Shown: positions 44,853-62,417 of the stretch, one piece after another | Numbering within the stretch: position 1 is the stretch's first letter | Layout of the letters: each line of letters starts with the position of its first letter | Assembly (NCBI GenBank): GCA_049692775.1 | Contig: JBAVPE010000113.1 | Span: 1,692-65,691 of the forward strand | DNA: 64,000 nt | Direction: 5' to 3' | DNA from: Anaerocolumna sp. | Lineage (GTDB): Bacteria > Bacillota > Clostridia > Lachnospirales > Lachnospiraceae | Program-made: the position numbers and the translations under genes | Notes under the pieces: generated by a model | Databases searched by the model: none | What the model saw: the letters and a program-made list of their open reading frames with translations, nothing else | What the model was told of the DNA's origin: nothing

Positions 44853-44881
44853 TTGACTTGGACAAGTGAAAGTGATACAAT
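44853..44881 (+). promoter_or_regulatory. SigA-type promoter of the microcompartment operon
   Basis: TTGACT (44853-44858), 17-nt spacer, TACAAT (44876-44881), followed by a CA-rich leader and an AAAGGAG RBS. Confidence 0.55.
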
Positions 44882-44936
44882 ACAGTCAAACAAACAAAAA
44901 ACAAACAAAAACCACATTGTTAAAGGAGATAATTAA

Positions 44937-47873: not shown

Positions 47874-47897
47874 AATTTTCATCATCCTGGTTTGAAT

Positions 47898-47922
47898 GCA
47901 TACTAAAGCATGCAAACGGGAG
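47898..47922 (+). promoter_or_regulatory. hairpin-SD module copy 1 (degenerate, distal)
   Basis: GCATAC-TAAA-GCATGC followed by AAACGGGAG. One mismatch in the stem. Lies 28 nt upstream of the adh start. Confidence 0.5.
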
Positions 47923-47949
47923 TTAAGATAATCAAATGGAGGATTCGTA

Positions 47950-49155
47950 ATGGATGTAAATTCTATAAATATTGAAGATATCGTTAAACAGGTCCTGAAA
48001 GAAATGAAAAGCACACCTGCTGTTAGGTCTTCTGACAAAGCAGCCGGAGTCATTCCTAAGGCCAGTAAAGTAGCGATGCTTACTAAATTAGGGCAATTTG
48101 AAATAAAGGAGTATCCGATTCCGGAGCTTGGTGATGATGATATTCTGGTAAAGGTAGAAGGCTGCGGTGTCTGTGGTACAGACGCCCATGAATTCAAAAG
48201 AGACCCCTTTAGCTTAATTCCTGTCGTATTGGGTCATGAAGGTACCGGTGAAGTTGTCAAAACCGGCAAAAATGTGAAAACGGACAGTGCGGGGAAACCT
48301 TTGGCTATTGGTGATAAAGTAGTTTCCTGTATGATATTTAAGGACAATCCCGATATTACTATGTTTGACTTAAATAAACAAAATGTCGGCGGAGCAGATG
48401 TATACGGATTACTTCTTGATGATGAAGTTCATTTAAACGGTTGGTTTGCTGATTATATCGTAATCCGCGGCGGTTCCACTATTTTTAATGTAAGTGACCT
48501 TGATTTAGAATCCAGAATCTTAATTGAGCCTTGTGCGGTATTAATCCATGCCGTAGAACGGGCAAAAACGACAGGAATCTTAAGATTTAACAGCCGGGTA
48601 GTAGTTCAAGGCTGCGGTCCTATCGGTCTTATCTGTATCGCAGTTCTTAGGACAATGGGTATTGAGAATATCATTGCAGTAGACGGTGAGCAGAAGAGAC
48701 TTGATTTTGCAAAGCTGATGGGTGCGGAAACTTCCGTTAACTTTAAAGATTACAAAGGTATTGAAGCCCTGGCAAAAGGAGTGGAAGATGCATTTGGAGG
48801 TCATTTAGCTGATTTTGCTTTCCAGTGTACGGGTTCCCCGGCAGGACATTCTAACATCTATAAATTTATCCGTAACGGCGGGGGACTTTGTGAACTTGGT
48901 TTCTTTATCAACGGCGGAGACGCAACGATTAATCCCCACTTTGACATTTGCGCGAAAGAAATTACGACCGTTGGTTCCTGGGTATACACCTTAAGGGATT
49001 ATGCTACCACTTTTGATTTCTTAAAGAGGGCAAAAGGAATCGGACTTCCGATGGAGAAATTAATTACACACAAATATCTTTTGGATCAGATAAATGAAGG
49101 ACTTGCTACCAATCTTAAAATGGAAGGCCTGAAAATCGCCATTGTGAATGAATAA
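47950..49155 (+). CDS. zinc-dependent alcohol dehydrogenase (MDR family) with N-terminal extension
   Basis: 401 aa. GxCGTDxH zinc motif in VEGCGVCGTDAHE and NAD site GCGPIGL. N-terminal helix NIEDIVKQVLKEMK. Confidence 0.85.
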   Translation: MDVNSINIEDIVKQVLKEMKSTPAVRSSDKAAGVIPKASKVAMLTKLGQFEIKEYPIPELGDDDILVKVEGCGVCGTDAHEFKRDPFSLIPVVLGHEGTGEVVKTGKNVKTDSAGKPLAIGDKVVSCMIFKDNPDITMFDLNKQNVGGADVYGLLLDDEVHLNGWFADYIVIRGGSTIFNVSDLDLESRILIEPCAVLIHAVERAKTTGILRFNSRVVVQGCGPIGLICIAVLRTMGIENIIAVDGEQKRLDFAKLMGAETSVNFKDYKGIEALAKGVEDAFGGHLADFAFQCTGSPAGHSNIYKFIRNGGGLCELGFFINGGDATINPHFDICAKEITTVGSWVYTLRDYATTFDFLKRAKGIGLPMEKLITHKYLLDQINEGLATNLKMEGLKIAIVNE

Positions 49156-49178
49156 GAAAGAAAGGCACGGTTGTATGT

Positions 49179-49493
49179 ATGGCTAATGCTGTTGGAATGA
49201 TAGAAGTGTTTGGACTTGTAGCGGCTTTCGTCGCAGGAGATGCCGGCTGTAAAGCAGCGAATGTCACGATTGAAACCTTCGACCGGAATAAACCTGCTAA
49301 TGCAGACAGCCTTCCCGTTCCTTTAATTGTTATGGTAAAGTTTCGCGGAAGTGTAGAGGATGTGAAAGAGGCAATAGAAGCAGCGGAAGCGGTTGCCAAT
49401 AAAGTATCCGGGGTAATAACAAAACATGTAATTGCCAATCCGGAACATGATACGGAAAAATTGCTGGCATTAAACGGACTCGATAAGAATTGA
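49179..49493 (+). CDS. BMC-H shell protein, divergent, with internal insertion
   Basis: 104 aa. BMC domain AVGMIEVFGLVAAFVAGDAGCKAANV...VKFRGSVEDVKEAIEAA. Confidence 0.8.
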   Translation: MANAVGMIEVFGLVAAFVAGDAGCKAANVTIETFDRNKPANADSLPVPLIVMVKFRGSVEDVKEAIEAAEAVANKVSGVITKHVIANPEHDTEKLLALNGLDKN

Positions 49494-49596
49494 TGATATT
49501 TCACGGATATGATACAATAAATTGTTATTAATAAATAAGACAAATCTAAATGAGCAACTAAATAAAACTAATGTAATCAATCAGGAGGATATAAAA

Positions 49597-49872
49597 ATGG
49601 CACAAGAAGCTTTAGGTATGGTAGAAACCAGAGGATTAACAGCAGCAATTGAAGCAGCAGATGCAATGGTGAAAGCAGCAGAAGTTGTATTAGTAGGAAC
49701 AGAAAAAATCGGTTCAGGACTTGTAACAGTTTTAGTACGCGGTGATGTAGGCGCAGTGAAAGCAGCGACAGAAGTAGGCGCAGCAGCAGCTGCAAGACTT
49801 GGTGAATTAGTAGCAGTACATGTAATCCCAAGACCACATACAGATGTAGAAAAAATTCTTCCGAAGATTTGA
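49597..49872 (+). CDS. BMC-H shell protein (PduA/EutM-like)
   Basis: AGGAGG RBS precedes the ATG at 49597. [28 protein letters not shown]...[10 protein letters not shown]. Confidence 0.9.
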
Positions 49873-49894
49873 TCTATACTGTAAACTCAGATAA

Positions 49895-49920
49895 GCGTGC
49901 GTGTAGCACGCAGACGGGAA
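49895..49920 (+). promoter_or_regulatory. hairpin-SD module copy 2 (distal)
   Basis: GCGTGC-GTGTA-GCACGC followed by AGACGGGAA, then a 9-codon mini-ORF starting at 49922. Confidence 0.55.
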
Positions 49921-49958
49921 CATGTGTAAAAGAAATTTTTACATTCCCTGATTTAAAA

Positions 49959-49983
49959 GCGTGCTAAGGCACGCAGAGTGGAG
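49959..49983 (+). promoter_or_regulatory. hairpin-SD module copy 3 (proximal; serves the shell gene at 49991)
   Basis: GCGTGC-TAAG-GCACGC followed by AGAGTGGAG. The ATG is 7 nt after GGAG. Confidence 0.6.
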
Positions 49984-49990
49984 CTTATAT

Positions 49991-50275
49991 ATGAAATCAT
50001 TCGGATTTATTGAAATTCCAAGCGTAACAGCAGCAATTGAGGCACTTGATATCATGTGTAAGACAGCGGATGTAGAATTCGTTACCTGGGAACGGAAATT
50101 AGGCGGAAGACTTGTAACAATTATAGTCCAAGGCGATGTATCTGCGGTAACACAAGCAATTGAGAGTGCAGTCTGCAAAGCCATGAAACCCTGTGTGCAT
50201 GCAGTAATCCCTAACCCCCATGAAGAAACAATCAAGATGGTTAATATAAGTGCAAGCAGATTAAGTAAGCTGTAA
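49991..50275 (+). CDS. BMC-H shell protein
   Basis: Starts MKSFGFIEIPSVTAAIEALDIMCKTADV. The track start at 49961 lies inside the upstream hairpin. Confidence 0.8.
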   Translation: MKSFGFIEIPSVTAAIEALDIMCKTADVEFVTWERKLGGRLVTIIVQGDVSAVTQAIESAVCKAMKPCVHAVIPNPHEETIKMVNISASRLSKL

Positions 50276-50300
50276 CGGATGCTTATACAAAAAATGCTAA

Positions 50301-50410
50301 GTTGAAAGAAAATTTAAATTAGAAAGGTCTGCCAGTATTGATTCTTTCAACATTTTTATTTATGGCAGTATCACATCTATAAGAAGATATGATATGCAAT
50401 GGGTGTTACT
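50301..50410 (+). promoter_or_regulatory. structured leader, copy B (operon-internal)
   Basis: P1 is GTTGAAAGAA (50301-50310) with TTCTTTCAAC (50342-50351), followed by ATTTTTATTT. P2 is CTGCCA (50329-50334) with TGGCAG (50363-50368). P3 is TATCACATC with GATATGATA. The TGCAATGGGTGT box is at 50395-50406. Confidence 0.6.
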
Positions 50411-50839
50411 ATGGCAGAAGCAAAAAAGCCTGAAGTGAAAGCAGTCACAAAAGAATCAGCAAAAGAAGAAATAAAAGAAGAGATAAAAGAAACAGTAAAA
50501 GAGACAATAAAACCAATCAAAAAAGAAACAGTTAAAACAACTGTTAAGGAGGAAAAAAGAATGGCACAGGAAGCATTAGGTATGGTAGAAACCAGAGGTT
50601 TAGTTGCAGCAATTGAAGCAGCAGATTCAATGTTAAAGGCAGCCAATGTAACATTAGTTGGAACAGAAAAAATCGGTTCCGGACTTGTAAGTGTTATGGT
50701 CAGGGGCGATGTAGGTGCAGTTAAGGCAGCAGTAGAATCAGGTGCAAGCTCAGCATCAAAACTTGGTGAATTAGTAGCTACTCACGTAATCCCAAGACCA
50801 CACACAGATGTAGAAAAAATTCTTCCATCATTAAAATAA
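50411..50839 (+). CDS. BMC-H shell protein (PduA-like) with a ~50-aa Lys/Glu-rich N-terminal extension; possible second internal start at 50561
   Basis: The ATG at 50411 sits after the conserved GGGTGT box in the position the rhaB ATG holds in copy A. The ATG at 50399 is in frame and cannot be excluded. A strong AAGGAGG RBS precedes the internal ATG at 50561 ([13 protein letters not shown]...). Confidence 0.7.
50462..50557 (+). repeat. eight tandem 12-nt units encoding K-E/T-x-I/V tetrapeptides
   Basis: The reading frame gives [32 protein letters not shown]. Confidence 0.65.
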
Positions 50840-50999
50840 TCCACTTTTATTTAAAGGTTACAGCTCTTTGTGACTGAAAGGTTGCAGGGAGCTGTAAATC
50901 CCATCATGATATGGCGGATAAAACAAACGACAATAAAGTGTATAACTATAGCGGCATAACGGTTAAGCAGCACGAAATATCTGAATATGAAAAGAGCAG

Positions 51000-51650
51000 G
51001 TGAATTTCTTGGAAGAAAAAACAATTGAAATGATAACGAGACTTGTAATGGAAGCAATGAATCAAAAAGACACGGAACAGGGGTTTGTTGTTCCCATAGG
51101 CGTATCAGCGAGACATGTCCATCTGACACAGGAGGATGTGGAAACCCTGTTTGGAAACGGATATGAATTAACCAGGAAAAAAGAATTAATGGGTGGACAA
51201 TTTGCATCCAATGAAGTAGTAACCATCGTAGGTTTGAAACTAAGGGCAATGGAAAATGTTAGAATATTAGGGCCGGTACGTAGGGCATCACAGGTAGAGA
51301 TATCTGCAACGGATGCAATTAAATTAGGAATTAAAACACCAATCAGAGAGTCCGGTGATATTAGAGGTTCAGCACCAATTGCAATTGTTGGTCCTAAAGG
51401 CGTTGTTTATTTAAAGGAAGGTTGTATTATAGCCAAAAGACATATTCATATGTCACCCGAAGATGCCAGGGCAGCTGGAGTAAAGAATGGAGATACCGTG
51501 TCCATACAAGTAGAAAATGAAAGAGGTACCACCTTCAATCATGTACAAATCCGTGTAGATAAAACATTTACACTTGAAATGCATATTGATACAGATGAAG
51601 CTAATGCAGCAAAAATCAGTACAGGTGACACTGCAATCATAATAAAATAG
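51000..51650 (+). CDS. pduL: phosphate propanoyltransferase
   Basis: PduL repeat signature VPIGVSARHVHL...RHIHM. GTG start at 51000. N-terminal helix KTIEMITRLVMEAM. Confidence 0.85.
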   Translation: MNFLEEKTIEMITRLVMEAMNQKDTEQGFVVPIGVSARHVHLTQEDVETLFGNGYELTRKKELMGGQFASNEVVTIVGLKLRAMENVRILGPVRRASQVEISATDAIKLGIKTPIRESGDIRGSAPIAIVGPKGVVYLKEGCIIAKRHIHMSPEDARAAGVKNGDTVSIQVENERGTTFNHVQIRVDKTFTLEMHIDTDEANAAKISTGDTAIIIK

Positions 51651-51767
51651 AATACAATGACATAAAAAAATAATTAAAGTAAATAACACCGTCTGTTAAG
51701 GCAGACATCTATGTCAATTAAAATAAATATAAGTCTTAATCACAGAAAATGATAAGCAGGTGAGAAT

Positions 51768-52034
51768 ATGATCGTAGGTAAAGTTGTAGGAAGCGTAGTA
51801 GCAACAAGAAAAAACGATAATCTTGTAGGCAGTAAATTTTTAATTGTTGAACCATTTGAAAATATGGAACAAGGTATGGGAAGAATTGTTGCAATAGACA
51901 ATGTCGGTGCAGGTATTGGCGAAATTGTTCTTGTTGCAAAAGGAAGTGCAGCACGTATTGGCTGTAATATGAAAGATGCACCTATTGACGCTGCGATTGT
52001 TGGTATTGTTGATGACGGAATCGGACTGGAGTAG
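51768..52034 (+). CDS. BMC-P pentameric vertex protein (EutN/PduN/CcmL family)
   Basis: 88 aa. MIVGKVVGSVVATRK...LVAKGSAAR. Confidence 0.9.
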   Translation: MIVGKVVGSVVATRKNDNLVGSKFLIVEPFENMEQGMGRIVAIDNVGAGIGEIVLVAKGSAARIGCNMKDAPIDAAIVGIVDDGIGLE

Positions 52035-52043
52035 ATTTGATAT

Positions 52044-53375
52044 ATGGATATTAAAGAACTGATAAGTGCCGTTAAGGAAAATGGAATTGCTGGTGCCGGC
52101 GGTGCCGGATTTCCTACTTATGCTAAATTAGATAAAAGAGCGGATACAATTATATTAAATTGCGCAGAGTGTGAACCCTTATTAAAAGTTCATAGACAAT
52201 TATTACAAAAATATGCTTACGAAATCATGTGCACCCTTGATAGGATGGCAGAATCAGTGGAAGCAGAGAAGGTAATTATAGCTGTTAAGGAAGCTTATTC
52301 TAAAACAGTGGAAGCAGTAAAGGCTAATCTGGATTCATTTCCAAGGCTCCGGATAAATTTTCTTTCTGAAGTATATCCCATGGGGGATGAAGTAGTATTG
52401 ATATATGAAACAACCGGTAAAAAAGTTCCACCCGGAAGTATTCCTATAGAAGTGGGCGTAGCAGTTTTTAATGTTGAGACAGTATTTAATATCTATAAGG
52501 CGGTAGAAAAAAAGGAACCGGTGTATTATAAGTATCTGACCATAGCAGGAGATGTTAAAAAACCTGTTACGATAAAAGCTCCTATTGGAATGTCAGTAGA
52601 AGCGGCGGTGGAATTAGCGGGTGGAGTAACCATTAAAGATTATGTATATTATATGGGCGGTCCTATGACAGGCAGTATAGTTAATCCTTATGATACTATT
52701 ACGAAAACTACCAATGCGATTCTTATCCTTCCAAGTGATCATACGGTAATTCTTAAAAAATCAGGGAACGCTTCTATTGATATGAAAAGAGCAATGGCAT
52801 CCTGCTGCCAATGTGAGATGTGTACGGATTTATGCCCAAGGCATTTACTTGGTCAGCCGATTACGCCCCATATGTTTATGCGGGCAGCAACCAGCGGTGT
52901 GACCCAGGATCTTAGCCCCTTCCTGGATACTTTATTTTGCTGTTCCTGTGGAATTTGTGAAATGTTTGCCTGTCCTCAGGGTTTGTCCCCAAGAAAACTA
53001 ATATCGGAATATAAATCAGGATTAAGAACTAAAGGAATAGCTATACCAAAAGGAATACCGTCAGAAGAAACAGATTCCATGAGGGAATACCGTAAAGTAC
53101 CTATGGAACGGCTGACAGCACGGCTCGGTTTAAAAGAATATGATGTAGAAGCACCTCTTAACGAAAAAGAAGTATTCACAAATCAGGTAAAGATTAATTT
53201 AAGCCAGCATATAGGTGTAAAAGCCCTGGCAGTGGTAGGGAAAAACGATCTTGTAAACCAGGGAGATGTCATTGCACAGGCTGAAGAAGGAAAGCTTTCC
53301 CTTCCTGTCCATGCCTCCATATCAGGTGAAATTACTGAGGTAAATGACAGATTCATAATTATAAAACATATATAA
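52044..53375 (+). CDS. PduS/RnfC-like flavo-iron-sulfur oxidoreductase
   Basis: 443 aa. N-terminal GAGGAGFPT nucleotide site and two 4Fe-4S motifs (CCQCEMCTDLCP and CCSCGICEMFACP). Confidence 0.8.
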   Translation: MDIKELISAVKENGIAGAGGAGFPTYAKLDKRADTIILNCAECEPLLKVHRQLLQKYAYEIMCTLDRMAESVEAEKVIIAVKEAYSKTVEAVKANLDSFPRLRINFLSEVYPMGDEVVLIYETTGKKVPPGSIPIEVGVAVFNVETVFNIYKAVEKKEPVYYKYLTIAGDVKKPVTIKAPIGMSVEAAVELAGGVTIKDYVYYMGGPMTGSIVNPYDTITKTTNAILILPSDHTVILKKSGNASIDMKRAMASCCQCEMCTDLCPRHLLGQPITPHMFMRAATSGVTQDLSPFLDTLFCCSCGICEMFACPQGLSPRKLISEYKSGLRTKGIAIPKGIPSEETDSMREYRKVPMERLTARLGLKEYDVEAPLNEKEVFTNQVKINLSQHIGVKALAVVGKNDLVNQGDVIAQAEEGKLSLPVHASISGEITEVNDRFIIIKHI

Positions 53376-53426
53376 CGGAAAGAATTTTCCTATTTTAAAA
53401 GTTAATGCAGGGAGGATGTACACTTT

Positions 53427-53975
53427 ATGAGTAAGGCAATCGGAATGGTTGAATATAAAACAGTTTCATCAGGAGTATTAGTGGCTGATACCATGTTAAA
53501 AACTGCCGAGGTAGAAATTATAGAAGCACAAACGGTTTGTCCCGGAAAGTACATTGTATTGTTAAGGGGTGACTTAAGTGCCATTAATGCCTGTATCGAA
53601 GTGGCCAGATCAAGATATAGTGAACATCTGATAGACAGCTTTATTCTTGGTAATCCTCATGAATCCATATTTTCTGCTATTTATGGTACAACCCGGATTG
53701 AGAAAATTAATGCCCTTGGAATTCTTGAGACATTTTCAGCTGCCTCTATTATAGTAGCAGCAGATGAAGCGGCCAAAACAGCGCTGGTAGAATTAATTGA
53801 ACTAAGAATCGCTAGAGGAATGTGCGGAAAATCTTATTTAATGCTTACAGGAGAAGTGGCCGCCGTTGAAGCTGCTATTGCGAAAGCAAAAGCAGCTGCA
53901 GGTGAAAATGCGATGCTGTTAGACGCCTCTGTTATTGCAAATCCAGATAGTAAACTCTGTAAGCGTATTCTATAG
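53427..53975 (+). CDS. BMC-T tandem-domain shell protein (PduT-like)
   Basis: 182 aa with two BMC domains. A Cys in TVCPGKY sits at the position of the PduT pore Fe-S ligand. Confidence 0.8.
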   Translation: MSKAIGMVEYKTVSSGVLVADTMLKTAEVEIIEAQTVCPGKYIVLLRGDLSAINACIEVARSRYSEHLIDSFILGNPHESIFSAIYGTTRIEKINALGILETFSAASIIVAADEAAKTALVELIELRIARGMCGKSYLMLTGEVAAVEAAIAKAKAAAGENAMLLDASVIANPDSKLCKRIL

Positions 53976-54032
53976 AAATATATTTTAATAATTGGATGCA
54001 CTGCGATAGAAAGCACCGCCTTTTATAACCTT

Positions 54033-54063
54033 TTATCAGAAATTGGTTTCCAATTTCTGATAA
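54033..54063. promoter_or_regulatory. 14-bp-arm perfect palindrome: terminator of the upstream operon and/or operator at the deoR-type gene promoter
   Basis: TTATCAGAAATTGG-TTT-CCAATTTCTGATAA. A TATAAT at 54071-54076 lies 8 nt downstream. Confidence 0.5.
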
Positions 54064-54133
54064 GTTATACTATAATATTATTAAGGTTAAATAATATTAA
54101 GTGGGTTACCATGTATGAAAGTAGGAAAGATAA

Positions 54134-54907
54134 ATGCTTGCAATTGAAAGAAGAAATCAAATATTGGCTATGTTACAGAGGGATCGCCGTGTTGTTGTCA
54201 GTGATTTAAGTACGAGCTTTAATGTAACGGAAGAGACTATCAGGCGGGATTTAGAAAAGCTTGAAAAAGATGGTTTTGCAAAGAAAACCTATGGCGGTGC
54301 TATCATTAAAGAAAGCCTGAATGTGGATTTGCCATACACCGTAAGGAAAAAGGCTAATGTGACTAATAAGCAGTATATAGCAGAAATTATCAGTTCCATG
54401 ATTGAAGACGGCGATCATATTATGATGGATGCAAGCTCTACGGCAGTATATGCGGCAAAGCATTTAAAGAATAAAAAGAATATTACTATAATTACGAATT
54501 CAATAGAAATTCTTCTGGAATTATCAGAAGTGGCCGGATGGAAGGTATTATCAACCGGTGGAACTTTAAGAGAAGGTTCCTTATCCCTGGTTGGATACCA
54601 GGCAGAGAAAATGATTACGAACTACCATGTAGATAAAGCAATCATATCCTGCAAGGGTATTGACATGGAAAAAGGAATTACTGATTCCAATGAAATGGAT
54701 GCACATATTAAGAAATTAATGTTGGAGTCAGCTAATATTAAAATATTAGCTGCAGACAATTCCAAATTTAATAAAATTTCCTTTACGAAAATAGGGGATT
54801 TGACCGACGTTGATATTATGATTACCGATTCCGAACTGGATGACAAATGGAAACAGGTTTTTAATTCAATGAAAGTGGAAACCCATTATAAAATTAATAA
54901 AGAGTAA
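54134..54907 (+). CDS. DeoR/GlpR family transcriptional regulator
   Basis: 257 aa. N-terminal wHTH RRNQILAMLQRDRRVVVSDLSTSFNVTEETIRRDL plus a DeoR C-terminal sugar-phosphate sensor domain. Confidence 0.9.
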   Translation: MLAIERRNQILAMLQRDRRVVVSDLSTSFNVTEETIRRDLEKLEKDGFAKKTYGGAIIKESLNVDLPYTVRKKANVTNKQYIAEIISSMIEDGDHIMMDASSTAVYAAKHLKNKKNITIITNSIEILLELSEVAGWKVLSTGGTLREGSLSLVGYQAEKMITNYHVDKAIISCKGIDMEKGITDSNEMDAHIKKLMLESANIKILAADNSKFNKISFTKIGDLTDVDIMITDSELDDKWKQVFNSMKVETHYKINKE

Positions 54908-54912
54908 GAAAA

Positions 54913-54937
54913 GCACGCTGAAGCGTGCAGACGGGAG
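54913..54937 (+). promoter_or_regulatory. hairpin-SD module copy 4 (distal)
   Basis: GCACGC-TGAA-GCGTGC followed by AGACGGGAG, then GTG-TAA. Confidence 0.55.
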
Positions 54938-54977
54938 CAAGTGTAAAGAAAAAGCATCATTACACTGGAAGAACCCT

Positions 54978-55004
54978 GGAATGAGCACAGAGGGTGCTCA
55001 TTCC
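54978..55004 (+). terminator. strong hairpin (possible attenuator) between deoR-type gene and GRE gene
   Basis: GGAATGAGCAC-AGAGG-GTGCTCATTCC, an 11-bp perfect stem extended by GAAGAA/TTCTTC, followed by GAGTTTCTTCTCGTATT. Confidence 0.5.
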
Positions 55005-55026
55005 GAGTTTCTTCTCGTATTAAAAA

Positions 55027-55051
55027 GCATGCTGAAGCATGCAGACGGGAG
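55027..55051 (+). promoter_or_regulatory. hairpin-SD module copy 5 (proximal; serves the GRE gene)
   Basis: GCATGC-TGAA-GCATGC followed by AGACGGGAG. The ATG is 6 nt after GGAG. Confidence 0.6.
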
Positions 55052-55057
55052 CACAGT

Positions 55058-57583
55058 ATGAAGAAATATAATGATATGGAAATTACGAAAAGTCCTAGAA
55101 TTGGGAGGCTAATTGAAGATTTATATGCCAAAATGCCTGAAATTGAAGCTGACCGTGCATATTTGCTTACGGAGAGTTATAAGCAGACCGAACAGGAACC
55201 AATTATCATACGACGTGCTAAGGCTTTTGAACATATCCTGAAAAATATTCCGATTACCATCAGGGAGAATGAATTGATTGCCGGAAGTGCAACAAAGGCT
55301 CCCAGAGGTTGTCAGGTGTTCCCTGAATTTTCTTATTCCTGGCTGGAAGAAGAATTTGATACCATCAGTACCCGTACTTCAGACCCTTTTTATATATCCC
55401 AAGACACTAAGAAAATATTACATGAAGTATATAAGTATTGGCAGGGTAAAACCACCAGTGAACTTGCAACGGCCTATATGGCACCGGAAGCGAAACTTGC
55501 CATTGACCATAATATATTTACACCCGGTAATTATTTCTATAATGGTGTAGGCCATGTAACAGTTTCTTATGATAAGATTCTTTCCGTTGGATATGAAGGT
55601 ATCATTGGAGAAGCAAAAGCTGCCATGGACCAATTAAAAGTTTCCGATATGGACTATGTAAAACGTCACGGATTTTTAGAAGCGGTTATCATAAGTTGTC
55701 AGGCAGCAATTGACTATGCACGAAGGTATGCAGAACTTGCGTTAGAGGAAGCGAAAGACTGTCAGGATCAGATCCGGAAAATAGAACTGTTGCGTATTGC
55801 GGAGAATTGTTCAAAAGTGCCGGGGAAAGGAGCATCCTCTTTCTATGAAGCCTGCCAGTCCTTCTGGTTTGTACAGATGCTTTTACAGGTTGAATCCAGC
55901 GGGCATTCCATATCTCCCGGACGTTTTGATCAATACATGTTTCCTTATTATGATGCGGACATGAAGGCAGGGAAGATTACACGTGAATTTGCCCAGGAAT
56001 TAATGGATTGTATCTGGGTTAAATTAAATGATTTAAATAAAGCCCGTGATGCAGCATCAGCAGAAGGATTTGCCGGTTACAGTTTATTTCAGAATCTGAT
56101 ATCAGGCGGACAAAATAAAGAAGGCATTGACGTTACCAATGATCTATCTTTTATGTGTATTGAAGCGTCCATGCATATAGCTTTACCGCAGCCCTCTTTA
56201 TCCGTTCGGGTATGGAATGGAACACCTCATGAGTTTATGATGAAAGCAGCCAAGCTAACCCGTACCGGTATTGGTCTGCCGGCTTATTATAACGATGAAG
56301 TAATCATCCCCGGACTTATAAACAGAGGTTTAACCCTGGCAGATGCAAGGGAATATAATATCATCGGTTGTGTAGAACCACAAAAAGCAGGAAAAACCGA
56401 TGGTTGGCATGACGCAGCTTTTTTTAATATGTGCAGGCCATTGGAACTTGTTTTCAGTGATGGAATGGACCAAGGTGTACAAATTTCTGTTAATACGGGT
56501 GAAGTAGGGAAGATAGGAACTTTTGAAGATTTCTTTGAAGCATATCAAAAGCAGATGAATTATATGATCGGCCTTATGGTAAATGCAGATAATGCCATAG
56601 ATGTGGCCCATGCCGAAAGATGCCCGCTTCCGTTTTTATCCAGTATGATTGAAGATTGTATCGGCCGCGGCAAGAGTGTACAGGAAGGTGGAGCAATTTA
56701 TAACTTTACCGGACCTCAGGGCTTTGGTATTGCCAATATGACCGATTCCTTATTTGCTATTAAGAAATTAGTATTTGAAGAAAAGAAAATTACCCTTTCT
56801 GAATATAAAAAAGCACTGGAATTGAACTATGGCAAAGGACTTGATGAAAAAGCCGCTGAAAAAGTAACCATGGAAATTGTCCAGGAATTAGTTACCAACG
56901 GTCAGAAAGTAACAGAAAAAGAAATTGGAGAAATATTTACTATAGCATTAAACGGTGGTATGGCCAAAGAAGAGCGGAAGAAATATAAGGACTTACAGGA
57001 ATTAATTAATGATATTCCAAAGTACGGTAATGATATCCCTGAAGTAGATGAAGTTGCCCGTGAAGTTGCCTATACTTATACAAAACCGTTAGAAACATAC
57101 AGAAATCCCCGTGGAGGACAATTCCAGGCTGGTTTATATCCGGTTTCAGCCAATGTGCCATTAGGTGCACAGACCGGTGCTACCCCGGATGGGAGATATG
57201 CATATACTCCTGTTGCAGACGGTGTTTCACCTTCTTCCGGCAAAGATACACATGGACCTACAGCGGCAGCGAATTCCGTTGCTAAACTGGATCATTACAT
57301 TGCTTCTAACGGAACCTTATTTAATCAGAAGTTCCACCCTTCCGCTTTAAGCGGCGTAAAAGGCCTTGAGAATTTCATTGCCTTAATCCGTGCTTATTTT
57401 GACCAAAAAGGAAGCCATATGCAGTTTAATGTAGTAAGCAGGGATACCTTGCTTGATGCGCAGAACTACCCGGATAATTATAAGAGCTTAGTAGTACGTG
57501 TTGCTGGATATAGTGCATTATTTACATCCCTTTCAAGATCTTTACAGGATGATATTATTGCAAGAACGGAACAGGGTTTTTAA
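55058..57583 (+). CDS. glycyl radical enzyme, PFL2/diol-dehydratase family (probable B12-independent 1,2-propanediol dehydratase)
   Basis: 841 aa. C-terminal glycyl-radical motif RVAGYSALF and catalytic-Cys loop IIGCVEPQ. Context: BMC locus with aldolase, PduP-like and PduL genes. Confidence 0.85.
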   Translation: MKKYNDMEITKSPRIGRLIEDLYAKMPEIEADRAYLLTESYKQTEQEPIIIRRAKAFEHILKNIPITIRENELIAGSATKAPRGCQVFPEFSYSWLEEEFDTISTRTSDPFYISQDTKKILHEVYKYWQGKTTSELATAYMAPEAKLAIDHNIFTPGNYFYNGVGHVTVSYDKILSVGYEGIIGEAKAAMDQLKVSDMDYVKRHGFLEAVIISCQAAIDYARRYAELALEEAKDCQDQIRKIELLRIAENCSKVPGKGASSFYEACQSFWFVQMLLQVESSGHSISPGRFDQYMFPYYDADMKAGKITREFAQELMDCIWVKLNDLNKARDAASAEGFAGYSLFQNLISGGQNKEGIDVTNDLSFMCIEASMHIALPQPSLSVRVWNGTPHEFMMKAAKLTRTGIGLPAYYNDEVIIPGLINRGLTLADAREYNIIGCVEPQKAGKTDGWHDAAFFNMCRPLELVFSDGMDQGVQISVNTGEVGKIGTFEDFFEAYQKQMNYMIGLMVNADNAIDVAHAERCPLPFLSSMIEDCIGRGKSVQEGGAIYNFTGPQGFGIANMTDSLFAIKKLVFEEKKITLSEYKKALELNYGKGLDEKAAEKVTMEIVQELVTNGQKVTEKEIGEIFTIALNGGMAKEERKKYKDLQELINDIPKYGNDIPEVDEVAREVAYTYTKPLETYRNPRGGQFQAGLYPVSANVPLGAQTGATPDGRYAYTPVADGVSPSSGKDTHGPTAAANSVAKLDHYIASNGTLFNQKFHPSALSGVKGLENFIALIRAYFDQKGSHMQFNVVSRDTLLDAQNYPDNYKSLVVRVAGYSALFTSLSRSLQDDIIARTEQGF

Positions 57584-57630
57584 ACTAAAACGCCGTTATT
57601 ACAATAGAAACCAGACCAAAGGAGGAATAA

Positions 57631-58422
57631 ATGGATAAGGATGAAATGCAGGTAAAGGGACGGATTTTTGACCTACAAAGATTTTCCGTTCATGACGGAC
57701 CCGGAATACGTACCATCGTCTTCTTAAAGGGCTGCAGGCTCAGGTGCAGATGGTGCTGTAATCCTGAATCCCAGGAATATGACATTCAAACCATGATGGT
57801 ACAGGGCAAACCTAAAATAATCGGAAAAGATGTTACCGTAGAAGAAGTAATGGATGAAATTAAGAAAGATTTACCTTATTACAGAAGATCCGGCGGAGGT
57901 GTAACCTTATCCGGCGGTGAGGCCCTATGCCAGCCGGAATTTGCTGTTGCATTATTAAAAGCCTGTCAGGATTATGGAATTCATACAGCCATGGAAAGTA
58001 CAGGATTTGCAGATTTTAAGGTTATTAAAAAATATCTTCCCTATCTGGACGTTTATTTAATGGACATCAAGCATATGAACAGCAGAAAACATGATGAGTT
58101 TACTACAAAGCCCAATGAACTGATTTTAGAAAATGCCAGGAAGATTGCAGAAACAGGGGCTCATTTGATTATAAGGGTACCGGTAATTCCCACATTTAAT
58201 CATACCAAAGAGGAAATAATAGATATCGCTGTATTTGCAAAAACTCTTCCAGGGGTACAGGAACTGCATTTACTCCCCTATCACAGGTTAGGTCAAGATA
58301 AATATGAAGGTCTTGGAAGAAAATATACCCTGGCTCACCTAGAACCATTAAGTAATGAGTATATGGAAGAATTACTGGAGGCAGCAACAGCTTCCGGATT
58401 ACAATGTCAGATCGGTGGTTAA
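57631..58422 (+). CDS. glycyl-radical enzyme activating protein (radical SAM)
   Basis: 263 aa. CRLRCRWCCNPE CxxxCxxC cluster motif and GGEAL SAM motif. Immediately downstream of the GRE. Confidence 0.9.
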   Translation: MDKDEMQVKGRIFDLQRFSVHDGPGIRTIVFLKGCRLRCRWCCNPESQEYDIQTMMVQGKPKIIGKDVTVEEVMDEIKKDLPYYRRSGGGVTLSGGEALCQPEFAVALLKACQDYGIHTAMESTGFADFKVIKKYLPYLDVYLMDIKHMNSRKHDEFTTKPNELILENARKIAETGAHLIIRVPVIPTFNHTKEEIIDIAVFAKTLPGVQELHLLPYHRLGQDKYEGLGRKYTLAHLEPLSNEYMEELLEAATASGLQCQIGG

Positions 58423-58490
58423 CTGGATTTAATCAGATTGGAGTAAGGTGAAAAATGATACAGTATATTTTTCACCATCCTGATATATAC

Positions 58491-58515
58491 GCGTGCTAAA
58501 GCACGCAGATTGGAG
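58491..58515 (+). promoter_or_regulatory. hairpin-SD module copy 6 (proximal; serves the PduU/EutS-like gene)
   Basis: GCGTGC-TAAA-GCACGC followed by AGATTGGAG. The ATG is 5 nt after GGAG. Preceded by a 10-bp hairpin GGTGAAAAAT/ATTTTTCACC (58447-58476). Confidence 0.6.
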
Positions 58516-58520
58516 TTTAT

Positions 58521-58898
58521 ATGGATATTCAGGATATGTTAACAAGTGAAAATAAATTGAGAATTATTCAGGAGATTGTACCGGGAAAACAAATTACAAT
58601 TGCCCATGTCATTGCCAATCCCGATGATATCCTGTATAAAAAACTTGGACTTAACCCGGAGATGGATTACCATAAATCTGCTATCGGCATTGTAACCCTT
58701 TCTCCCAGTGAGACAGCTATTATTGCCAGTGATTTAGCGATAAAAACTTCCGGTGTGGAATTAGGGTTTGTGGATCGTTTCAGCGGTACTTTAATTGTAA
58801 CAGGCAGTGTATCGGAAGTAGAAACCTCCCTTAAGGCCATTGTAGAGTATACTAAGGATAAATTAAATTTTACGGTATGTGAAATAACAAGGACATGA
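58521..58898 (+). CDS. circularly permuted BMC shell protein (PduU/EutS-like)
   Basis: 125 aa. IQEIVPGKQITIAHVIANP...AIGIVTLSPSETAIIASDLAIKTSGVEL. Confidence 0.85.
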   Translation: MDIQDMLTSENKLRIIQEIVPGKQITIAHVIANPDDILYKKLGLNPEMDYHKSAIGIVTLSPSETAIIASDLAIKTSGVELGFVDRFSGTLIVTGSVSEVETSLKAIVEYTKDKLNFTVCEITRT

Positions 58899-59326
58899 AA
58901 AGGATCATATTTGTGGGCAGAAGTGAATGCGGAAAAACAACCTTAACCCAGGCTTTAAGGGGGGAAGAGTTAAAATACCAAAAAACCCAATATACCGGCT
59001 ATCATGATTTAATCATTGATACCCCCGGGGAATACGCGGAAACTAAGACTTTAGCAGGGGCTTTAGCCTTGTATTCCTATGAAGCAGATGTGGTTGGACT
59101 CCTCCTTGGTGCAACAGAGGATTATTCCCTGTATAGCCCGAATATCACAAGTCTTGTTAATCGGGAAGTGATTGGTATTGTAACCCAGATCGACCGTTCG
59201 GAAGCTAACCCGTTTAGGGCGGAGCAGTGGCTTTTGTTGTCAGGCTGTGATAAAATATTTTTTGTAAGTGCCTGTACTGGGGAAGGTATTGGGACGTTAT
59301 TAAATTTTTTAAAGGATAATGAATGA
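58895..59326 (+). CDS. EutP/PduV family small GTPase
   Basis: 143 aa. P-loop GRSECGKTT and DTPGE. 4-nt overlap with the preceding gene. Confidence 0.85.
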   Translation: MKRIIFVGRSECGKTTLTQALRGEELKYQKTQYTGYHDLIIDTPGEYAETKTLAGALALYSYEADVVGLLLGATEDYSLYSPNITSLVNREVIGIVTQIDRSEANPFRAEQWLLLSGCDKIFFVSACTGEGIGTLLNFLKDNE

Positions 59327-59411
59327 GGCTGAGCTGAAATAGTAATTTTATGTTCAGTCTTTCTTTCATATATGGGAATTTATTTTAAACAGTATGGATG
59401 GTGGTGATTTT

Positions 59412-60368
59412 ATGAATGCAGAGTTATTACACAAACTGGAAAAAATAACGAAAGAGGAAGAACTTATATTATCCGGTAAGAATTTTGTAGAAAAAAATTT
59501 ATATACAACTAAAAAAGACTTTATTATAGACAGTAAAAAGATGCTGGATAAAGGAAAACTAATCGATGTAAGGACCCATACCAGGTTTACCCATTTCCCC
59601 AAACATAAACATAATTATATTGAAATCATCTATATGTGTAAAGGAAGTACCACCCATACTATTAACGATGTAAGCCAGGTAGTACTGGAAGAGGGAGATT
59701 TATTGTTTTTGAACCAGAATGCTTTTCAGGAGATATTGCCTGCCGGAGAAAAAGACATAGCAATTAATTTTATTGTTCTGCCCGAATTTTTTGATGTTGC
59801 CTTCAGTATGCTAAAAGGGGAAAATATGCTGAAAAATTTTATTGTGGATTCCCTGAGACAGAATACGGGTAAGGCTAGTTACTTATATTTCAAGGTCGCA
59901 GATATTTTACCAATACAAAACCTGATTGAAAACATGATCTGGTCATTAGTGAATAAACAGCCTAATAATCATAAAATAAACCAGACCACAATGGGATTAT
60001 TATTTCTACAGCTGTTAAATTATACGGATAAAATCGAACAGGCCGGAAATGATCCATATGATAATTATATGACATTGTCGGTACTTCGTTATATTGAAGA
60101 AAACTACAGGGAGGCAAGCCTGGCTAAACTTGCGGAAGATTTAAACCAATCAATTTATTCCCTGAGTAAATTAATTAAACGAAATACCGGTCATAATTAC
60201 AAAGAGCTGCTGCAGATGAAAAGGTTTAATAAAGCGGTAGAGTTATTGACGAATACAAAACTGACGGTTTCGGATATCATTGCGGTGGTGGGTTACGATA
60301 ATACAAGCTATTTTCACCGTGTTTTTAAAGAAAAGTACCAAATGACCCCAAAACAGTTCCGCGGATAA
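59412..60368 (+). CDS. AraC family transcriptional regulator (cupin sensor + HTH)
   Basis: C-terminal AraC HTH (VGYDNTSYFHRVFKEKYQMTPKQFR). GGTGGTGA precedes the ATG at 59412; the ATG at 59394 lacks an RBS. Confidence 0.85.
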   Translation: MNAELLHKLEKITKEEELILSGKNFVEKNLYTTKKDFIIDSKKMLDKGKLIDVRTHTRFTHFPKHKHNYIEIIYMCKGSTTHTINDVSQVVLEEGDLLFLNQNAFQEILPAGEKDIAINFIVLPEFFDVAFSMLKGENMLKNFIVDSLRQNTGKASYLYFKVADILPIQNLIENMIWSLVNKQPNNHKINQTTMGLLFLQLLNYTDKIEQAGNDPYDNYMTLSVLRYIEENYREASLAKLAEDLNQSIYSLSKLIKRNTGHNYKELLQMKRFNKAVELLTNTKLTVSDIIAVVGYDNTSYFHRVFKEKYQMTPKQFRG

Positions 60369-60435
60369 TAATAGGCTTCTGTTGTAAGATTCATGGTATG
60401 AGGATTTTACAGCCCCTTTGTTCTTATTTATAATC

Positions 60436-62133
60436 TTACTCACCTCTTAAGCTTTCAAAGGTACCGTAAATATTGACCATTCCATAACCCCATTCCCGGT
60501 TGGGATAGTTTAAAGCCGGATTCCTGTTTACCCCACGGATTAAATACTTCTGAATTTGAAATGTGTCCATGGACCGGTCATTACCATTTACAATTCCCCA
60601 TTCAAGCAGCATAGCAGCCACGCCGGTGAGCAATGCTGCAGCGGTACTGGTGCCTGAGGTTAATCCGTACTCTCCATTTGGTAAGGGGGAATAGACATTT
60701 ACGCCAGGTGCAGCTAAGTCCGGGTTAATTATATTATATCGGGAGTAGCCTCTGCTGGCATTGGAATAAAGGCTTTGATTTATAGGATTGTAAGCTGTGG
60801 CTGTAATAGCAAATATGTTATTTCCCGGTTCAGTTATAGTTGTATATTGGTTAGGTGACAGAAAAACGGTATCTTCAGAGATAAACCCCCGTACCGGCAG
60901 CCATATATGAAAACCGGAGGTGATTTTTGAACCATAGACCTTAAATTTCCATATTCCAGGAGCAGGATTTCTAAAACGGATCAGAATCAGCTGATCACCG
61001 GTTTGGGCCTCCACAATGACATAATCAATATAAATGATGGTAGATTCGAAAATAAACCTGATATTCCTGAATTCATTTAATCTTGCAGGAATACGGGGGA
61101 TGTACTCTCCGGAGGGGGAGATAATATCAATGGAATAGGTACCGGGAGTATTACCCCATAATTCCATGGAAAAATTATGTTCTTCATTTCCTATTTTTAA
61201 TTCTACCAGGGTATGGCCGACTGAGTTATCAATTTCCCCGAAAAAATGATGGCCGGCATTACCTTCGTTACCGGCAGCGATGATAATTGCAGTTCCGATC
61301 TGATTCGAATAAGACGATATCAAATCATTTAAGGGACCTAACCCATCATGGCTTCCCTGATTGGTTCCCAATCCGATGCATATTGCAATGGGACGGTTCA
61401 TTTTTTTGGCCATATTGATTAAATAAGTTAATCCAAACATAATATCATTTTCTGAATAGCAAATAGCGTTTTCTGGTATACCAAAATAATCTCTCCCATT
61501 TAATTTTGAATTTTTTAATTTAACAATAACAAATTCTGACAATGGAACAACTCCGGAAAATTTTTCTGATTCAGTAGGATTTCCTCCCGCAAGTCCTGCT
61601 AAAGTGGTGCCGTGTCCTATATCATCAGTACTTGGAACGATATCCAGGGGATTTTCACTTTTAAGAGCCAGATTAATCTGCTCCCTGGTATATTCCGTAC
61701 CATAATAAAAGATATCAGAAGAAGCCTGCATATTCTCTATGGTCTGGTCCCATATGGAGACAATTCTGGTAGTCTGGTCAGCATATTGAAACAATGTATC
61801 CAGATAATCTATTCCTGTATCAATAAAACCTAATAGGACCCCATTTCCCTTAAGAGATAAGTAAGGTGTAGTTTGAAGTCTTATTACGCCCATTTCTTCC
61901 AGGCTGGCTGTATCCAGCAGAGTATACAGCTTTGGGATGACAGAATAAGCAACTGAGCCGATTAATCTATCCGGTATTCGTGTCATAGTGACATAAATCA
62001 CTGCATATTTGTCATTGATATAATTAATTGTTTCACCTGCATATCTTGCGAATTCTTCGGGACTGAGGGTAGATTCAATTATACCGTCTGCATAATCCTC
62101 ACTGATTATTTTTCTTCTTTCTTCCTCATTCAT
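60436..62133 (-). CDS. S8 (subtilisin-like) serine peptidase, similar in size and organisation to clostridial Csp proteases
   Basis: Catalytic triad contexts FIDTGIDY (Asp), GHGTTLAG (His) and SGTSTAAALLTG (Ser). 565 aa with an N-terminal prodomain-like region and no signal peptide. Confidence 0.75.
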   Translation of the reverse strand: MNEEERRKIISEDYADGIIESTLSPEEFARYAGETINYINDKYAVIYVTMTRIPDRLIGSVAYSVIPKLYTLLDTASLEEMGVIRLQTTPYLSLKGNGVLLGFIDTGIDYLDTLFQYADQTTRIVSIWDQTIENMQASSDIFYYGTEYTREQINLALKSENPLDIVPSTDDIGHGTTLAGLAGGNPTESEKFSGVVPLSEFVIVKLKNSKLNGRDYFGIPENAICYSENDIMFGLTYLINMAKKMNRPIAICIGLGTNQGSHDGLGPLNDLISSYSNQIGTAIIIAAGNEGNAGHHFFGEIDNSVGHTLVELKIGNEEHNFSMELWGNTPGTYSIDIISPSGEYIPRIPARLNEFRNIRFIFESTIIYIDYVIVEAQTGDQLILIRFRNPAPGIWKFKVYGSKITSGFHIWLPVRGFISEDTVFLSPNQYTTITEPGNNIFAITATAYNPINQSLYSNASRGYSRYNIINPDLAAPGVNVYSPLPNGEYGLTSGTSTAAALLTGVAAMLLEWGIVNGNDRSMDTFQIQKYLIRGVNRNPALNYPNREWGYGMVNIYGTFESLRGE

Positions 62134-62393
62134 TCTTAAACCTCTCCCTGATATAATTTTAAGACTTATTGTAATATATGAAATAAGATGATAACTTATT
62201 TTGCAAAGATGATGAATTTTACATCAGGTTATTAATGATTAAACTATTTAAATGTATTACATTATTGCTCTTTCTGGAAGTATTTGTTATACTGTTTACG
62301 GCTATTTATAATGATTAGGGAAGAATTAATACAATATTCTGTAAAGAAATTAACTTACCCAAATCTTTGATTAATAAGAAGAGTGTATTTGAC

Positions 62394-62417
62394 GCGTGCA
62401 AAGTACGCAGATTGGAG
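62394..62417 (+). promoter_or_regulatory. hairpin-SD module copy 7 (outside the BMC locus; serves the SGNH hydrolase)
   Basis: GCGTG-CAAAG-TACGC (one G-U wobble) followed by AGATTGGAG. ATGATG follows 3 and 6 nt after GGAG. Confidence 0.5.

Follow-up and report, generated by a model that had tools for sequence, protein, structure and literature searches.

A sense-oriented structured repeat of Anaerocolumna and other Lachnospiraceae that probably provides Shine-Dalgarno sequences to the genes it precedes

The window analysed here, a stretch of 64 kb from Anaerocolumna sp., carries a glycyl radical enzyme (GRE) bacterial microcompartment (BMC) locus of the fucose/rhamnose type, as judged from a Pfam scan of 20 locus proteins. 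The locus encodes a class II aldolase, aldehyde and alcohol dehydrogenases (AldDH and ADH), PTAC, an RnfC-like protein, the GRE and its activase, BMC and EutN shell proteins, PduU-like and PduV-like proteins and the regulators DeoR and AraC. Ahead of several of these genes lies a GC-rich hairpin followed by a Shine-Dalgarno (SD) sequence. We regard these sites, with reasonable though far from full confidence, as the local representatives of a dispersed repeat of Anaerocolumna and other Lachnospiraceae, which is modular, structured and sense-oriented, behaves as duplicative or mobile, and supplies the SD of the gene behind it.

The original prediction listed seven plus-strand copies of such a hairpin-plus-SD motif, and all seven were recovered at their coordinates and on that strand only. 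The strict pattern gave five matches on the plus strand of the window, none on the minus strand and none in positions 1-47897; with one mismatch allowed, five matches stood against zero in every one of 100 dinucleotide-preserving shuffles. The three mutually compensating stem versions are present as described (GCGTGC/GCACGC, GCACGC/GCGTGC and GCATGC/GCATGC), the copy at 47898 having a single A.C mismatch and the one at 62394 a stem of 5 bp. An eighth copy was found on the minus strand at 9062-9132, beyond the BMC locus and before an alkaline phosphatase gene. In the window the copies appear to supply the ribosome-binding site (RBS) of the shell gene at 49991, the GRE gene at 55058, the PduU-like gene at 58521, the SGNH hydrolase gene at 62421/62424 and the alkaline phosphatase gene at 9056. 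The claimed fixed distance between GGAG and start codon holds for the first four of these genes, with a spacing of 7 nt (ATG 49991), 6 nt (55058), 5 nt (58521) and 3 or 6 nt (62421/62424). It does not extend to the remaining copies: those at 49895 and 54913 each form the first hairpin of an array of two and are not RBSs, and the copy at 47898 lies about 28 nt ahead of the ADH start. As ADH has an SD of its own, GGAGGA at 47938, this last copy is not the ADH RBS.

The motif as first described was also incomplete, being only the 3' third of a larger unit of approximately 65-80 nt. The unit begins with an SD-like GGGAG and continues with an AU-rich hairpin of variable length with the core UGAAA..UUUCA, a CUCCC that pairs back to the upstream GGGAG, the linker UGAUUU, 4-5 nt, a GC hairpin of 6 bp with a YRAR tetraloop, AGAU and a terminal GGGAG. 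The module hairpin-AGAU-GGGAG is present twice around CUCCCUGAU. Both AGAU and UGAU, between which a tandem sheared G.A interaction is conceivable, are nearly invariant in the family, the UGAUUU linker is conserved, and so is the position of the GC hairpin 4 nt ahead of the SD. Units stand singly or head to tail in arrays of 2 to about 5; many single copies are without the upstream hairpin, and the left flank of single copies is GGAG-like. The shell and GRE upstream regions each have two GC hairpins. After the first comes AGACGGGA(A/G); this is the 5' side of the base of the long hairpin, and the 3' side, (U/C)UCCC, runs into UGAUUU. Among the Bacillota matches listed, the consensus reads (GGGAG), variable long hairpin, CCCTGATTT, NNNAY, hairpin, AGATGGGAG, Y, N3-6, ATG. 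The sense orientation noted earlier proved general, and the A-run said to precede the hairpin turned out to be peculiar to this locus, the wider family reading UGAUUU-NNNAY at that place.

Following the plus strand through the locus, the first unit lies between the AldDH and ADH genes at 47869-47922 (covariance model score 42 bits, E 8e-8) and consists of a short AU hairpin GATGAA/TTCATC (47869-47883), whose 5' arm overlaps the AldDH stop codon, the linker ATCCTGGTTTGAAT (47884-47897) and the GC hairpin GCATAC-TAAA-GCATGC with AAACGGGAG (47898-47922). The last AldDH codons and stop, ATA AGA TGA at 47866-47873, form the 5' arm of the AU hairpin, and relatives without this unit (locus L001, around 2650) code the same residues as ATC AGG TAA, which suggests either that the AldDH end was replaced by the unit or that synonymous sites were recruited into the hairpin. 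Ahead of the shell gene, an upstream GC hairpin GCGTGC-GTGTA-GCACGC with AGACGGGAA (49895-49920), of which GGGAA is the 5' base of the next long hairpin, leads into a full unit at 49913-49983 (67 bits, E 1e-13). This unit is made up of GGGAA-long hairpin-UUCCC (49916-49948), UGAUUUAAAA (49949-49958) and a GC hairpin with AGAGTGGAG (49959-49983), whose GGAG is the presumed SD for the shell gene. In the spacer from deoR to the GRE gene, the upstream GC hairpin GCACGC-TGAA-GCGTGC with AGACGGGAG (54913-54937) stands immediately 3' of the deoR stop codon, and the GC hairpin GCATGC-TGAA-GCATGC, again with AGACGGGAG (55027-55051, 36.6 bits), carries the probable SD of the GRE gene (ATG 55058). The middle part is enlarged here (54938-55026) to two hairpins, of which one is AGTGTAA..TTACACT at 54940-54966, and an AU-rich linker; it is conserved in the related loci L001, L002, L122 and L123. 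Inside it lies a terminator-like 11-bp GC-containing hairpin GGAATGAGCAC..GTGCTCATTCC (54978-55004, plus strand) followed by GAGTTTCTTCTCG to about 55017. This nested hairpin (approximately 54977-55005), the sole plus-strand terminator-like call in the region and conserved in the same four loci, could be a deoR terminator or an attenuator before the GRE gene.

The PduU-like gene is preceded by a full unit with its left partner (58434-58515, plus strand; 74 bits, E 3e-15), comprising the left partner CAGATTGGAG (58434-58443), a long AU-rich 10-bp hairpin GGTGAAAAAT..ATTTTTCACC (58447-58476), the linker AUCCUGAUAUAUAC (58477-58490) and the GC hairpin with AGATTGGAG (58491-58515), after which come UUUAU and AUG; the unit holds the probable SD of this gene. 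The SGNH hydrolase gene (ATG 62421 or 62424) has as its probable SD a minimal module, GCGTG-CAAAG-TACGC with AGATTGGAG, at 62394-62417 on the plus strand (18 bits, E 0.02). The eighth copy, on the minus strand (21 bits, E 0.006), has the hairpin GCCU-UAUAAC-AGGC at 9084-9071 and the tail AGAUGGGAG at 9070-9062, followed by UUAAC and, at a spacing of 5 nt, the in-frame ATG 9056 of the alkaline phosphatase gene. The longest open reading frame (ORF) of this gene runs from 9086 on the minus strand; the SD in the repeat at 9070-9062 indicates ATG 9056 instead, giving a signal-peptide-like start (MNKILKR..).

Further we looked at base pairing across the family. Compensatory changes occur in all 17 model pairs, and 90.2% of the cells are paired as against 73.2% in shuffles and 30-66% with a slid partner, in an alignment that was itself fitted to the model. 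The outer GG/CC pairs covary too. In 41 copies that were not chosen by the search pattern, the stem variants include GCCCGC/GCGGGC, GCCUGC/GCAGGC, GCCGCC/GGCGGC and GCGCGU/ACGCGC. An independent metagenome scan, in which only the flanks and the outer GC pairs were fixed and stem positions 3-4 left free, gave 19 matches, of which 17 are fully complementary at both free positions, with four pair types, the chance expectation being 1 in 16. Pairs of the G.U kind are in excess of A.C (90 vs 57, p 0.008), and therefore the sense strand is the folding strand. The tetraloop is restricted to YRAR, with UAAA the most frequent, and the tail is also conserved in sequence. These results bear out the earlier preference for an RNA hairpin over a DNA half-site, and support that the hairpin is selected as a sense-strand structure and not as a palindrome read in DNA by a protein.

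To describe the family we scanned one genome per species with the pattern GCRYGC-N4-GCRYGC-AGA-NN-GGAG, in which the stem ends are fixed, and at least 117 stretches matched. The loci were compared mostly as 8-kb pieces of genomes. A covariance model, R1, built from 29 units, then found 118 copies in 79 loci; this and the figures in the rest of this paragraph are among the matches listed. A start codon within 2-13 nt and an ORF of at least 50 aa follow 85 of the 118 copies, at a distance of 5-6 nt in 70 of the 85. Another 15 copies lead into the next unit, and most of the remaining 18 are situated at locus ends. Every R1 copy is sense-oriented and directly upstream of a start codon or a further unit. 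From the spacing of 5-6 nt between the GGGAG of a final unit and the start codon we infer that this GGGAG is used as the SD of the downstream gene, and that the element is therefore carried on the mRNA. The carriers are Anaerocolumna jejuensis, A. xylanovorans, several metagenome-assembled genomes (MAGs) of Anaerocolumna, Lachnoclostridium, Eisenbergiella, Acetatifactor, CE91-St56 and many further MAGs. Matches in high-GC phyla have unrelated flanks and no extended consensus, and resemble GC palindromes of chance origin. The genes behind the element have no relation to each other; they include clpP, secA, hisF, pyrH, smpB, pheT, galE, rfbA, carA, cbiD and pncB, as well as ABC-transporter components and shell proteins.

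Many contigs of one genome can carry the element, with at least 12 loci in S29_Bin8 and at least 12 in bin.35. Outside the recruiting match, bin.35 has about 190 copies per Mb, S29_Bin8 has 70, and bin.33 and Anaerocolumna bin.141 have 35-50; 170 kb from other carriers contain none. The consensus unit had no BLAST match in plasmid or phage collections. The genome-wide pattern check that was proposed to separate a REP-like repeat from a start-tied signal does not decide for one of them; the element is a dispersed repeat and is also strictly sense-oriented and tied to starts. Two loci on contigs labelled Bacteroidaceae HGM05072 (L015 and L042) have back-to-back hairpin-plus-AGAGGGGAG modules without the long hairpin and with CCTCCCCAA ahead, reading GCGTGC-TTCA-GCACGC-AGAGGGGAG-AAA-GCGTGC-GCAA-GCACGC.., and represent either a variant array or mis-binned Lachnospiraceae contigs.

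The same distribution bears on the idea that the element serves the microcompartment as an operator or RNA target of a regulator encoded at the BMC locus, be it DeoR, AraC or an ANTAR-type antiterminator. Seven of the eight window copies do lie within 15 kb of the locus that encodes DeoR and AraC. Yet unrelated housekeeping genes have the element in front of them in many genomes, as does the alkaline phosphatase gene of the window, and the covarying stems leave no fixed DNA half-site; a DeoR or AraC operator is contradicted on both counts. In ANTAR targets two hairpins follow each other in tandem, each with a loop of six nucleotides in which A occupies position 1 and G position 4, and the second hairpin overlaps a terminator. 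The present loops have 4 nt, the hairpin is followed by AGA..GGAG and no terminator, and none of the 20 locus proteins scanned against Pfam has an ANTAR domain, and so this target type was rejected as well. We give next to no credence to a locus-encoded regulator, and the BMC-specific role envisaged in the original prediction finds no support, the same element standing before dozens of unrelated genes in many Lachnospiraceae genomes.

Nine orthologous BMC loci were compared for the presence of units. Every Anaerocolumna locus among them has units ahead of both BMC3 and the GRE gene, 1 to about 5 in number, namely 1-3 at the site orthologous to that of the shell gene at 49991 and 1 to about 5 at the GRE site, and the stems at the orthologous loci are degenerate or contain wobble pairs. 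No units were found in the BMC locus of Anaerotaenia torta. The unit before the PduU-like gene is present only in the window and absent at all other loci examined; the copy before the SGNH hydrolase gene is likewise unique to the window, relatives retaining only GCAGATAGGAG; and the ADH copy is common only to the window and L123, being absent from L001, L002, L003, L122 and L125. The expected recurrence at orthologous loci is thereby seen at the BMC3 and GRE sites, with compensatory changes, and is missing for the PduU-like and SGNH copies. The clearest case of gain or loss is the BMC4 site, which is empty in L124 and L125 (..AG-AAGGAGC-TAAT-ATG) and filled in L123 (..AG-AAGGAGC-[one complete unit ending AGATGGGAGC]-TTAAT-ATG), with the unit placed after the old SD and GGAGC on either side of it. 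As GGAGC is also the 3' end of the element and an SD, target duplication and target preference look the same at this site. In other genomes the orthologous starts of pyrH, smpB and others have an ordinary SD and no element. Units on separate contigs of one genome (L037 and L049) can be 97-98% identical, such near-identical pairs being few, and subfamilies of the long hairpin, loops included, are common to several genomes. These sequence comparisons show a turnover of units, by gain, loss and amplification, within short evolutionary distances, and the element thus behaves as a duplicative or mobile one.

Folding predictions were made to see how the parts of the unit might interact. Minimum free energy and centroid structures show both hairpins, the GGGA/UCCC closure and a terminal SD that is largely unpaired, its mean unpaired probability being 0.45 over 56 units. 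Deletion of the upstream GGGAG in silico lowers this value from 0.45 to 0.35 (p 2e-5); over the same 56 units, deletion of CUCCC leaves it unchanged and it stays at 0.45 when the GC hairpin is broken. The proposal that the hairpin keeps the SD accessible thus finds no support in the folding calculations, and the GC hairpin was rejected as an SD insulator; since breaking it has no effect on accessibility, its purpose should be another one. For the pairing between the decoy SD and its anti-SD the models predict a modest effect. It could be argued from this pairing that the unit is a riboregulator, in which CUCCC would turn the gene on by pairing with the upstream decoy GGGAG and off by pairing with the real SD, the switch being set by ribosomes ending the upstream gene or by a global RNA-binding protein or small RNA that recognises hairpin-AGAUGGGAG. 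The doubled hairpin-AGAU-GGGAG module, the covarying outer pairs and the lowered accessibility upon decoy removal fit such a switch, and the conserved YRAR loop and tail would suit a recognition site. The predicted effect is however small and insensitive to CUCCC removal, the upstream hairpin is missing in many single copies, the downstream genes have no functional theme, and no candidate trans-acting factor was identified; we consider a riboregulator improbable.

Returning to the dispersed repeat, we suggest that a unit would fit between an older SD and the start codon, where it would restore an SD at the same spacing, and that the built-in CUCCC would pair off the SD-like sequence left upstream. 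With the SD restored and the old one paired off, insertions would be nearly neutral and could thereby spread across unrelated genes. The GC hairpin would act at the RNA level, either by stopping a 5' exonuclease once the AU-rich linker has been cleaved or by serving as a protein site. More tentatively, and with greater doubt than hope of being right in every part, we speculate that the element represents an unrecognised class of bacterial interspersed element, a structured, modular portable RBS that inserts or duplicates at initiation regions, regenerates the SD at its former spacing, neutralises the old SD by a built-in anti-SD and has been co-opted in Lachnospiraceae to tune translation or mRNA-segment stability for hundreds of genes, the dosage of microcompartment shell and enzyme subunits included.

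Several observations count against the dispersed-repeat reading. Mean identity is 0.61 within a genome (different contigs) and 0.58 between genomes, for which reason a recent burst of miniature inverted-repeat transposable elements (MITEs) was rejected, and the GRE and BMC3 orthologous copies keep their hairpins across species by compensatory change. Taken together these two findings suggest long-term selection for function and not a purely selfish element. The sequences compared revealed neither a transposase, looked for by tblastn in approximately 1 Mb, nor terminal inverted repeats nor a clear target-site duplication, so that mobility is suggested by presence/absence patterns and one clean filled/empty pair, and breaking the GC hairpin in silico leaves SD accessibility as it was. 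The family is therefore old and diverged, and it shows some recent copying, tandem arrays that grow and shrink, and scattered new insertions. Persistence with compensatory changes before the major shell and GRE genes favours some function there.

Such a function is at the centre of the strongest rival explanation, which we still hold to be rather unlikely. RNase Y prefers cutting after G in AU-rich sequence. The unit would then be a selected RNA processing and stabilisation (SRPS-like) module, in which the long hairpin shields the upstream 3' end, an RNase Y-type cut falls at UG/AUUU and the GC hairpin blocks 5'-to-3' exonuclease; placed before the major shell and GRE genes, it would set the dosage of microcompartment subunits. 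Among the matches listed, 60 of the 96 arrays stand after a co-directional ORF, often 0-60 nt from its stop codon, which favours this reading, whereas 29 of the 96 lie in divergent, promoter-containing regions. The conserved UGAUUU linker and the hairpin fixed 4 nt before the SD speak for a processing site, yet a cut at UG/AUUU would leave 8-10 unpaired nt before the hairpin. Arrays persist at the BMC3 and GRE sites of all Anaerocolumna loci compared; on the other side, processing accounts neither for the lineage-specific density of 0 to 190 per Mb nor for the SD-like/anti-SD pairing. There is precedent in Clostridium cellulolyticum, where SRPS with intergenic processing sites and stem-loops is enriched in operons for protein complexes (PMC4423207). 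The likeness to that system, as in cip-cel, lies in intergenic stem-loops of multi-subunit operons that are proposed to set stoichiometry; the difference is that SRPS was defined by mapped processing sites and folding energy, with no sequence family (PMC4423207), and the present repeat forms a clear sequence family with putative processing. It should be noted that the dispersed-repeat and processing readings are compatible with each other and not exclusive.

A leader peptide was also considered, starting with NUG-AAA in the long hairpin's 5' arm, ending at the UGA within CCCUGA and acting by ermC/cat-like attenuation or reinitiation. The 5' arm does read SD, 5 nt, (A/G/U)UG AAA, and in two window units (GTG 58448 and ATG 49922) the start is in frame with UGA. 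Across the 34 units with both codons the frames are however distributed 16/6/12, several in-frame units have internal stops, and NUG frames end before the real SD in 25 of 43 cases as against 26 of 45 for a control frame. The conserved leader ORF with its own SD of ermC/cat attenuators is thus absent, and the sequestered SD of these attenuators was not seen in the predicted folds either (mean unpaired 0.45 over 56 units). With the frame unconserved and termination before the SD not enriched, we rejected the leader peptide or mini-ORF and regard it as extremely improbable. Very improbable, too, is a reading of the units as ordinary promoters or intrinsic terminators whose similarity is accidental. 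The AT-rich linker might be taken for part of a promoter, but no sigma-70-like call falls at the units and the promoter-like total is 61 against 58.8 in shuffles. Three window hairpins with T-runs on the minus strand were called terminator-like; on the plus strand the GC hairpin is followed by AGA..GGAG and not by a U-run, the long hairpins were not called, and the minus-strand T-run is specific to the locus and no family feature. Intrinsic terminators were accordingly discarded, the GC hairpins scoring only on the minus strand. Other candidates were rejected for the unit as well: an internal promoter with extended -10 TGATTT and -35 TTGAAA (spacings misfit and the promoter scan calls none) and, judged by eye, a sigma-54 promoter (GGCAC..TTGC; the -12 GC is missing), a CcpA cre site (TGAAAG..CTTTCA in the long hairpin; half-site spacing 3 to 12 nt), a hammerhead core (CUGAUGA; the unit reads CUGAUUU and Rfam is negative) and a K-turn (GA positions misfit).

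Comparison with known small repeats places the element among interspersed sequences of similar size and sets it apart from each of them. BOX elements of Streptococcus pneumoniae are modular interspersed repeats of the form boxA-boxB(n)-boxC. Like the present repeat they are short modular intergenic repeats of a Firmicute with a variable number of tandem subunits, are transcribed with their neighbours, are predicted to form stable hairpins, occur in around 100 or more copies and have no transposase of their own, none having been found for the present repeat either. BOX is however not tied to start codons and has no downstream SD, whereas the present repeat is strictly sense-oriented with a fixed 5-6 nt from SD to start; we know of no sequence similarity between the two. 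Repetitive extragenic palindromes (REP/REPIN) have a conserved 5' GTAG, lie mostly after genes in both orientations or as inverted doublets, and are associated with RAYT. They resemble our element as dispersed extragenic palindromes with covarying stems, lineage-specific copy number and effects, putative ones in our element, on the stability of mRNA segments, and differ from it in that our unit has no GTAG, is found in sense only, upstream of a start codon or unit, and combines two unlike hairpins with an SD. Correia elements of Neisseria and the ERIC/IRU repeats of enterobacteria carry terminal inverted repeats, are flanked by target-site duplications and are found inserted both ways round. 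They too are small repeats in transcribed intergenic regions whose RNA hairpins can alter processing, stability or translation; the present unit differs by lacking terminal inverted repeats, by its single orientation and by ending in an apparently functional SD. In the alignments the unit ends, YAAG.. and ..AGAUGGGAG, are not inverted as those of a MITE would be, and only the two internal hairpins are.

The STAB-SD and 5' stem-loop stabilisers of Bacillus (the aprE leader, ermC and cryIIIA) protect Firmicute mRNA from 5' decay. They share with our unit a stable hairpin just before the SD and SD-like sequences without a gene, and by analogy the GC hairpin and decoy GGGAG might act like a STAB-SD stabiliser; the Bacillus elements are however single gene-specific leaders at a primary 5' end and not hundreds of homologous copies. 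Elements derived from IS200/IS605, the palindrome-associated transposable elements (PATE), have subterminal hairpins and no terminal inverted repeats, and insert strand-specifically 3' of a short fixed sequence. The GGAG-like left flank of single copies and a hairpin near each end recall this pattern; the two hairpins are unlike each other, contrary to what is expected of one such element. A tblastn search with approximate IS200/IS608 TnpA queries, a weak test, gave nothing significant in the approximately 1 Mb searched. Putative mobile promoters are highly similar 5' regions found before unrelated genes within and between genomes (PMC3575422), from which the present unit differs in having no promoter signature and carrying an RBS instead.

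The original prediction recognised no described motif here, and our searches agree. Against Rfam 15 at the gathering threshold the window matches only glmS; the region 44-64 kb gave nothing relevant at E<=10, and two canonical members of the family (L037 and L078) searched at E<=10 gave only matches far below the gathering score, no Rfam family thus matching the element. The 15-mers GCACGCAGATGGGAG and GCGCGCAGATGGGAG occur in no paper of the searched literature, and the BMC and transcription start site papers on C. phytofermentans do not mention the element. The repeat is accordingly described neither in Rfam 15 nor in the literature searched, and what sets it apart, as an apparently undescribed interspersed structured repeat, is that it carries an apparently functional RBS. 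The glmS ribozyme/riboswitch itself lies at 32592-32775 on the minus strand and scores 60.4 bits, the gathering score being 37.

Members of the Lachnospiraceae rank among the most abundant bacteria in gut and plant-degrading communities, and to our knowledge little is known about post-transcriptional gene control in this family. The element would offer a route by which translation signals spread through a genome, and arrays before the major shell and signature enzyme genes are candidate determinants of subunit stoichiometry in the microcompartment. For annotation it can correct start calls, as for the alkaline phosphatase gene (9086 to 9056), and for engineering it could serve as a natural modular RBS part for Lachnospiraceae. 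Arrays also break assemblies: in L123 the 370-nt spacer before the GRE gene (9631-10000) holds at least 4 units together with a stretch of N, the tandem array having interrupted the assembly of the metagenome at this place.

Some further observations were made at the BMC loci. Before the aldolase gene of the window, a sigma-70-type promoter graded as good (TTGACT, 17 nt with TG, TACAAT) lies within 44853-44913 on the plus strand, followed by an unusual A/C-rich leader CAAACAAACAAAAAACAAACAAAAACC, and this region is likely the operon start. A near-perfect 14+14 palindrome, TTATCAGAAATTGG-TTT-CCAATTTCTGATAA (54033-54063, plus strand), lies directly before a TATAAT-like box ahead of deoR; it may be an operator for autoregulation or else terminate the shell gene before it. 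In A. torta a different tandem repeat of about 55 nt (TTATGAGCAA..AGCGAAGCGGATTGCGAATATCCGA), present twice with a palindrome ahead, stands before BMC3 (L004, 4807-4951) and looks like an unrelated element in the same niche. The region before ADH in L124 (2710-2834) has short imperfect tandem repeats of the AGCAATGCA and AGCACGGCATAAGA types and no hairpin unit. Minimal ORFs were seen at two places, ATG TAA straight after the SD and ahead of the real gene start in L054 (4147-4160), and ATG GAA ATT GAA TAA ahead of the ADH SD in L123 (approximately 2370-2403).

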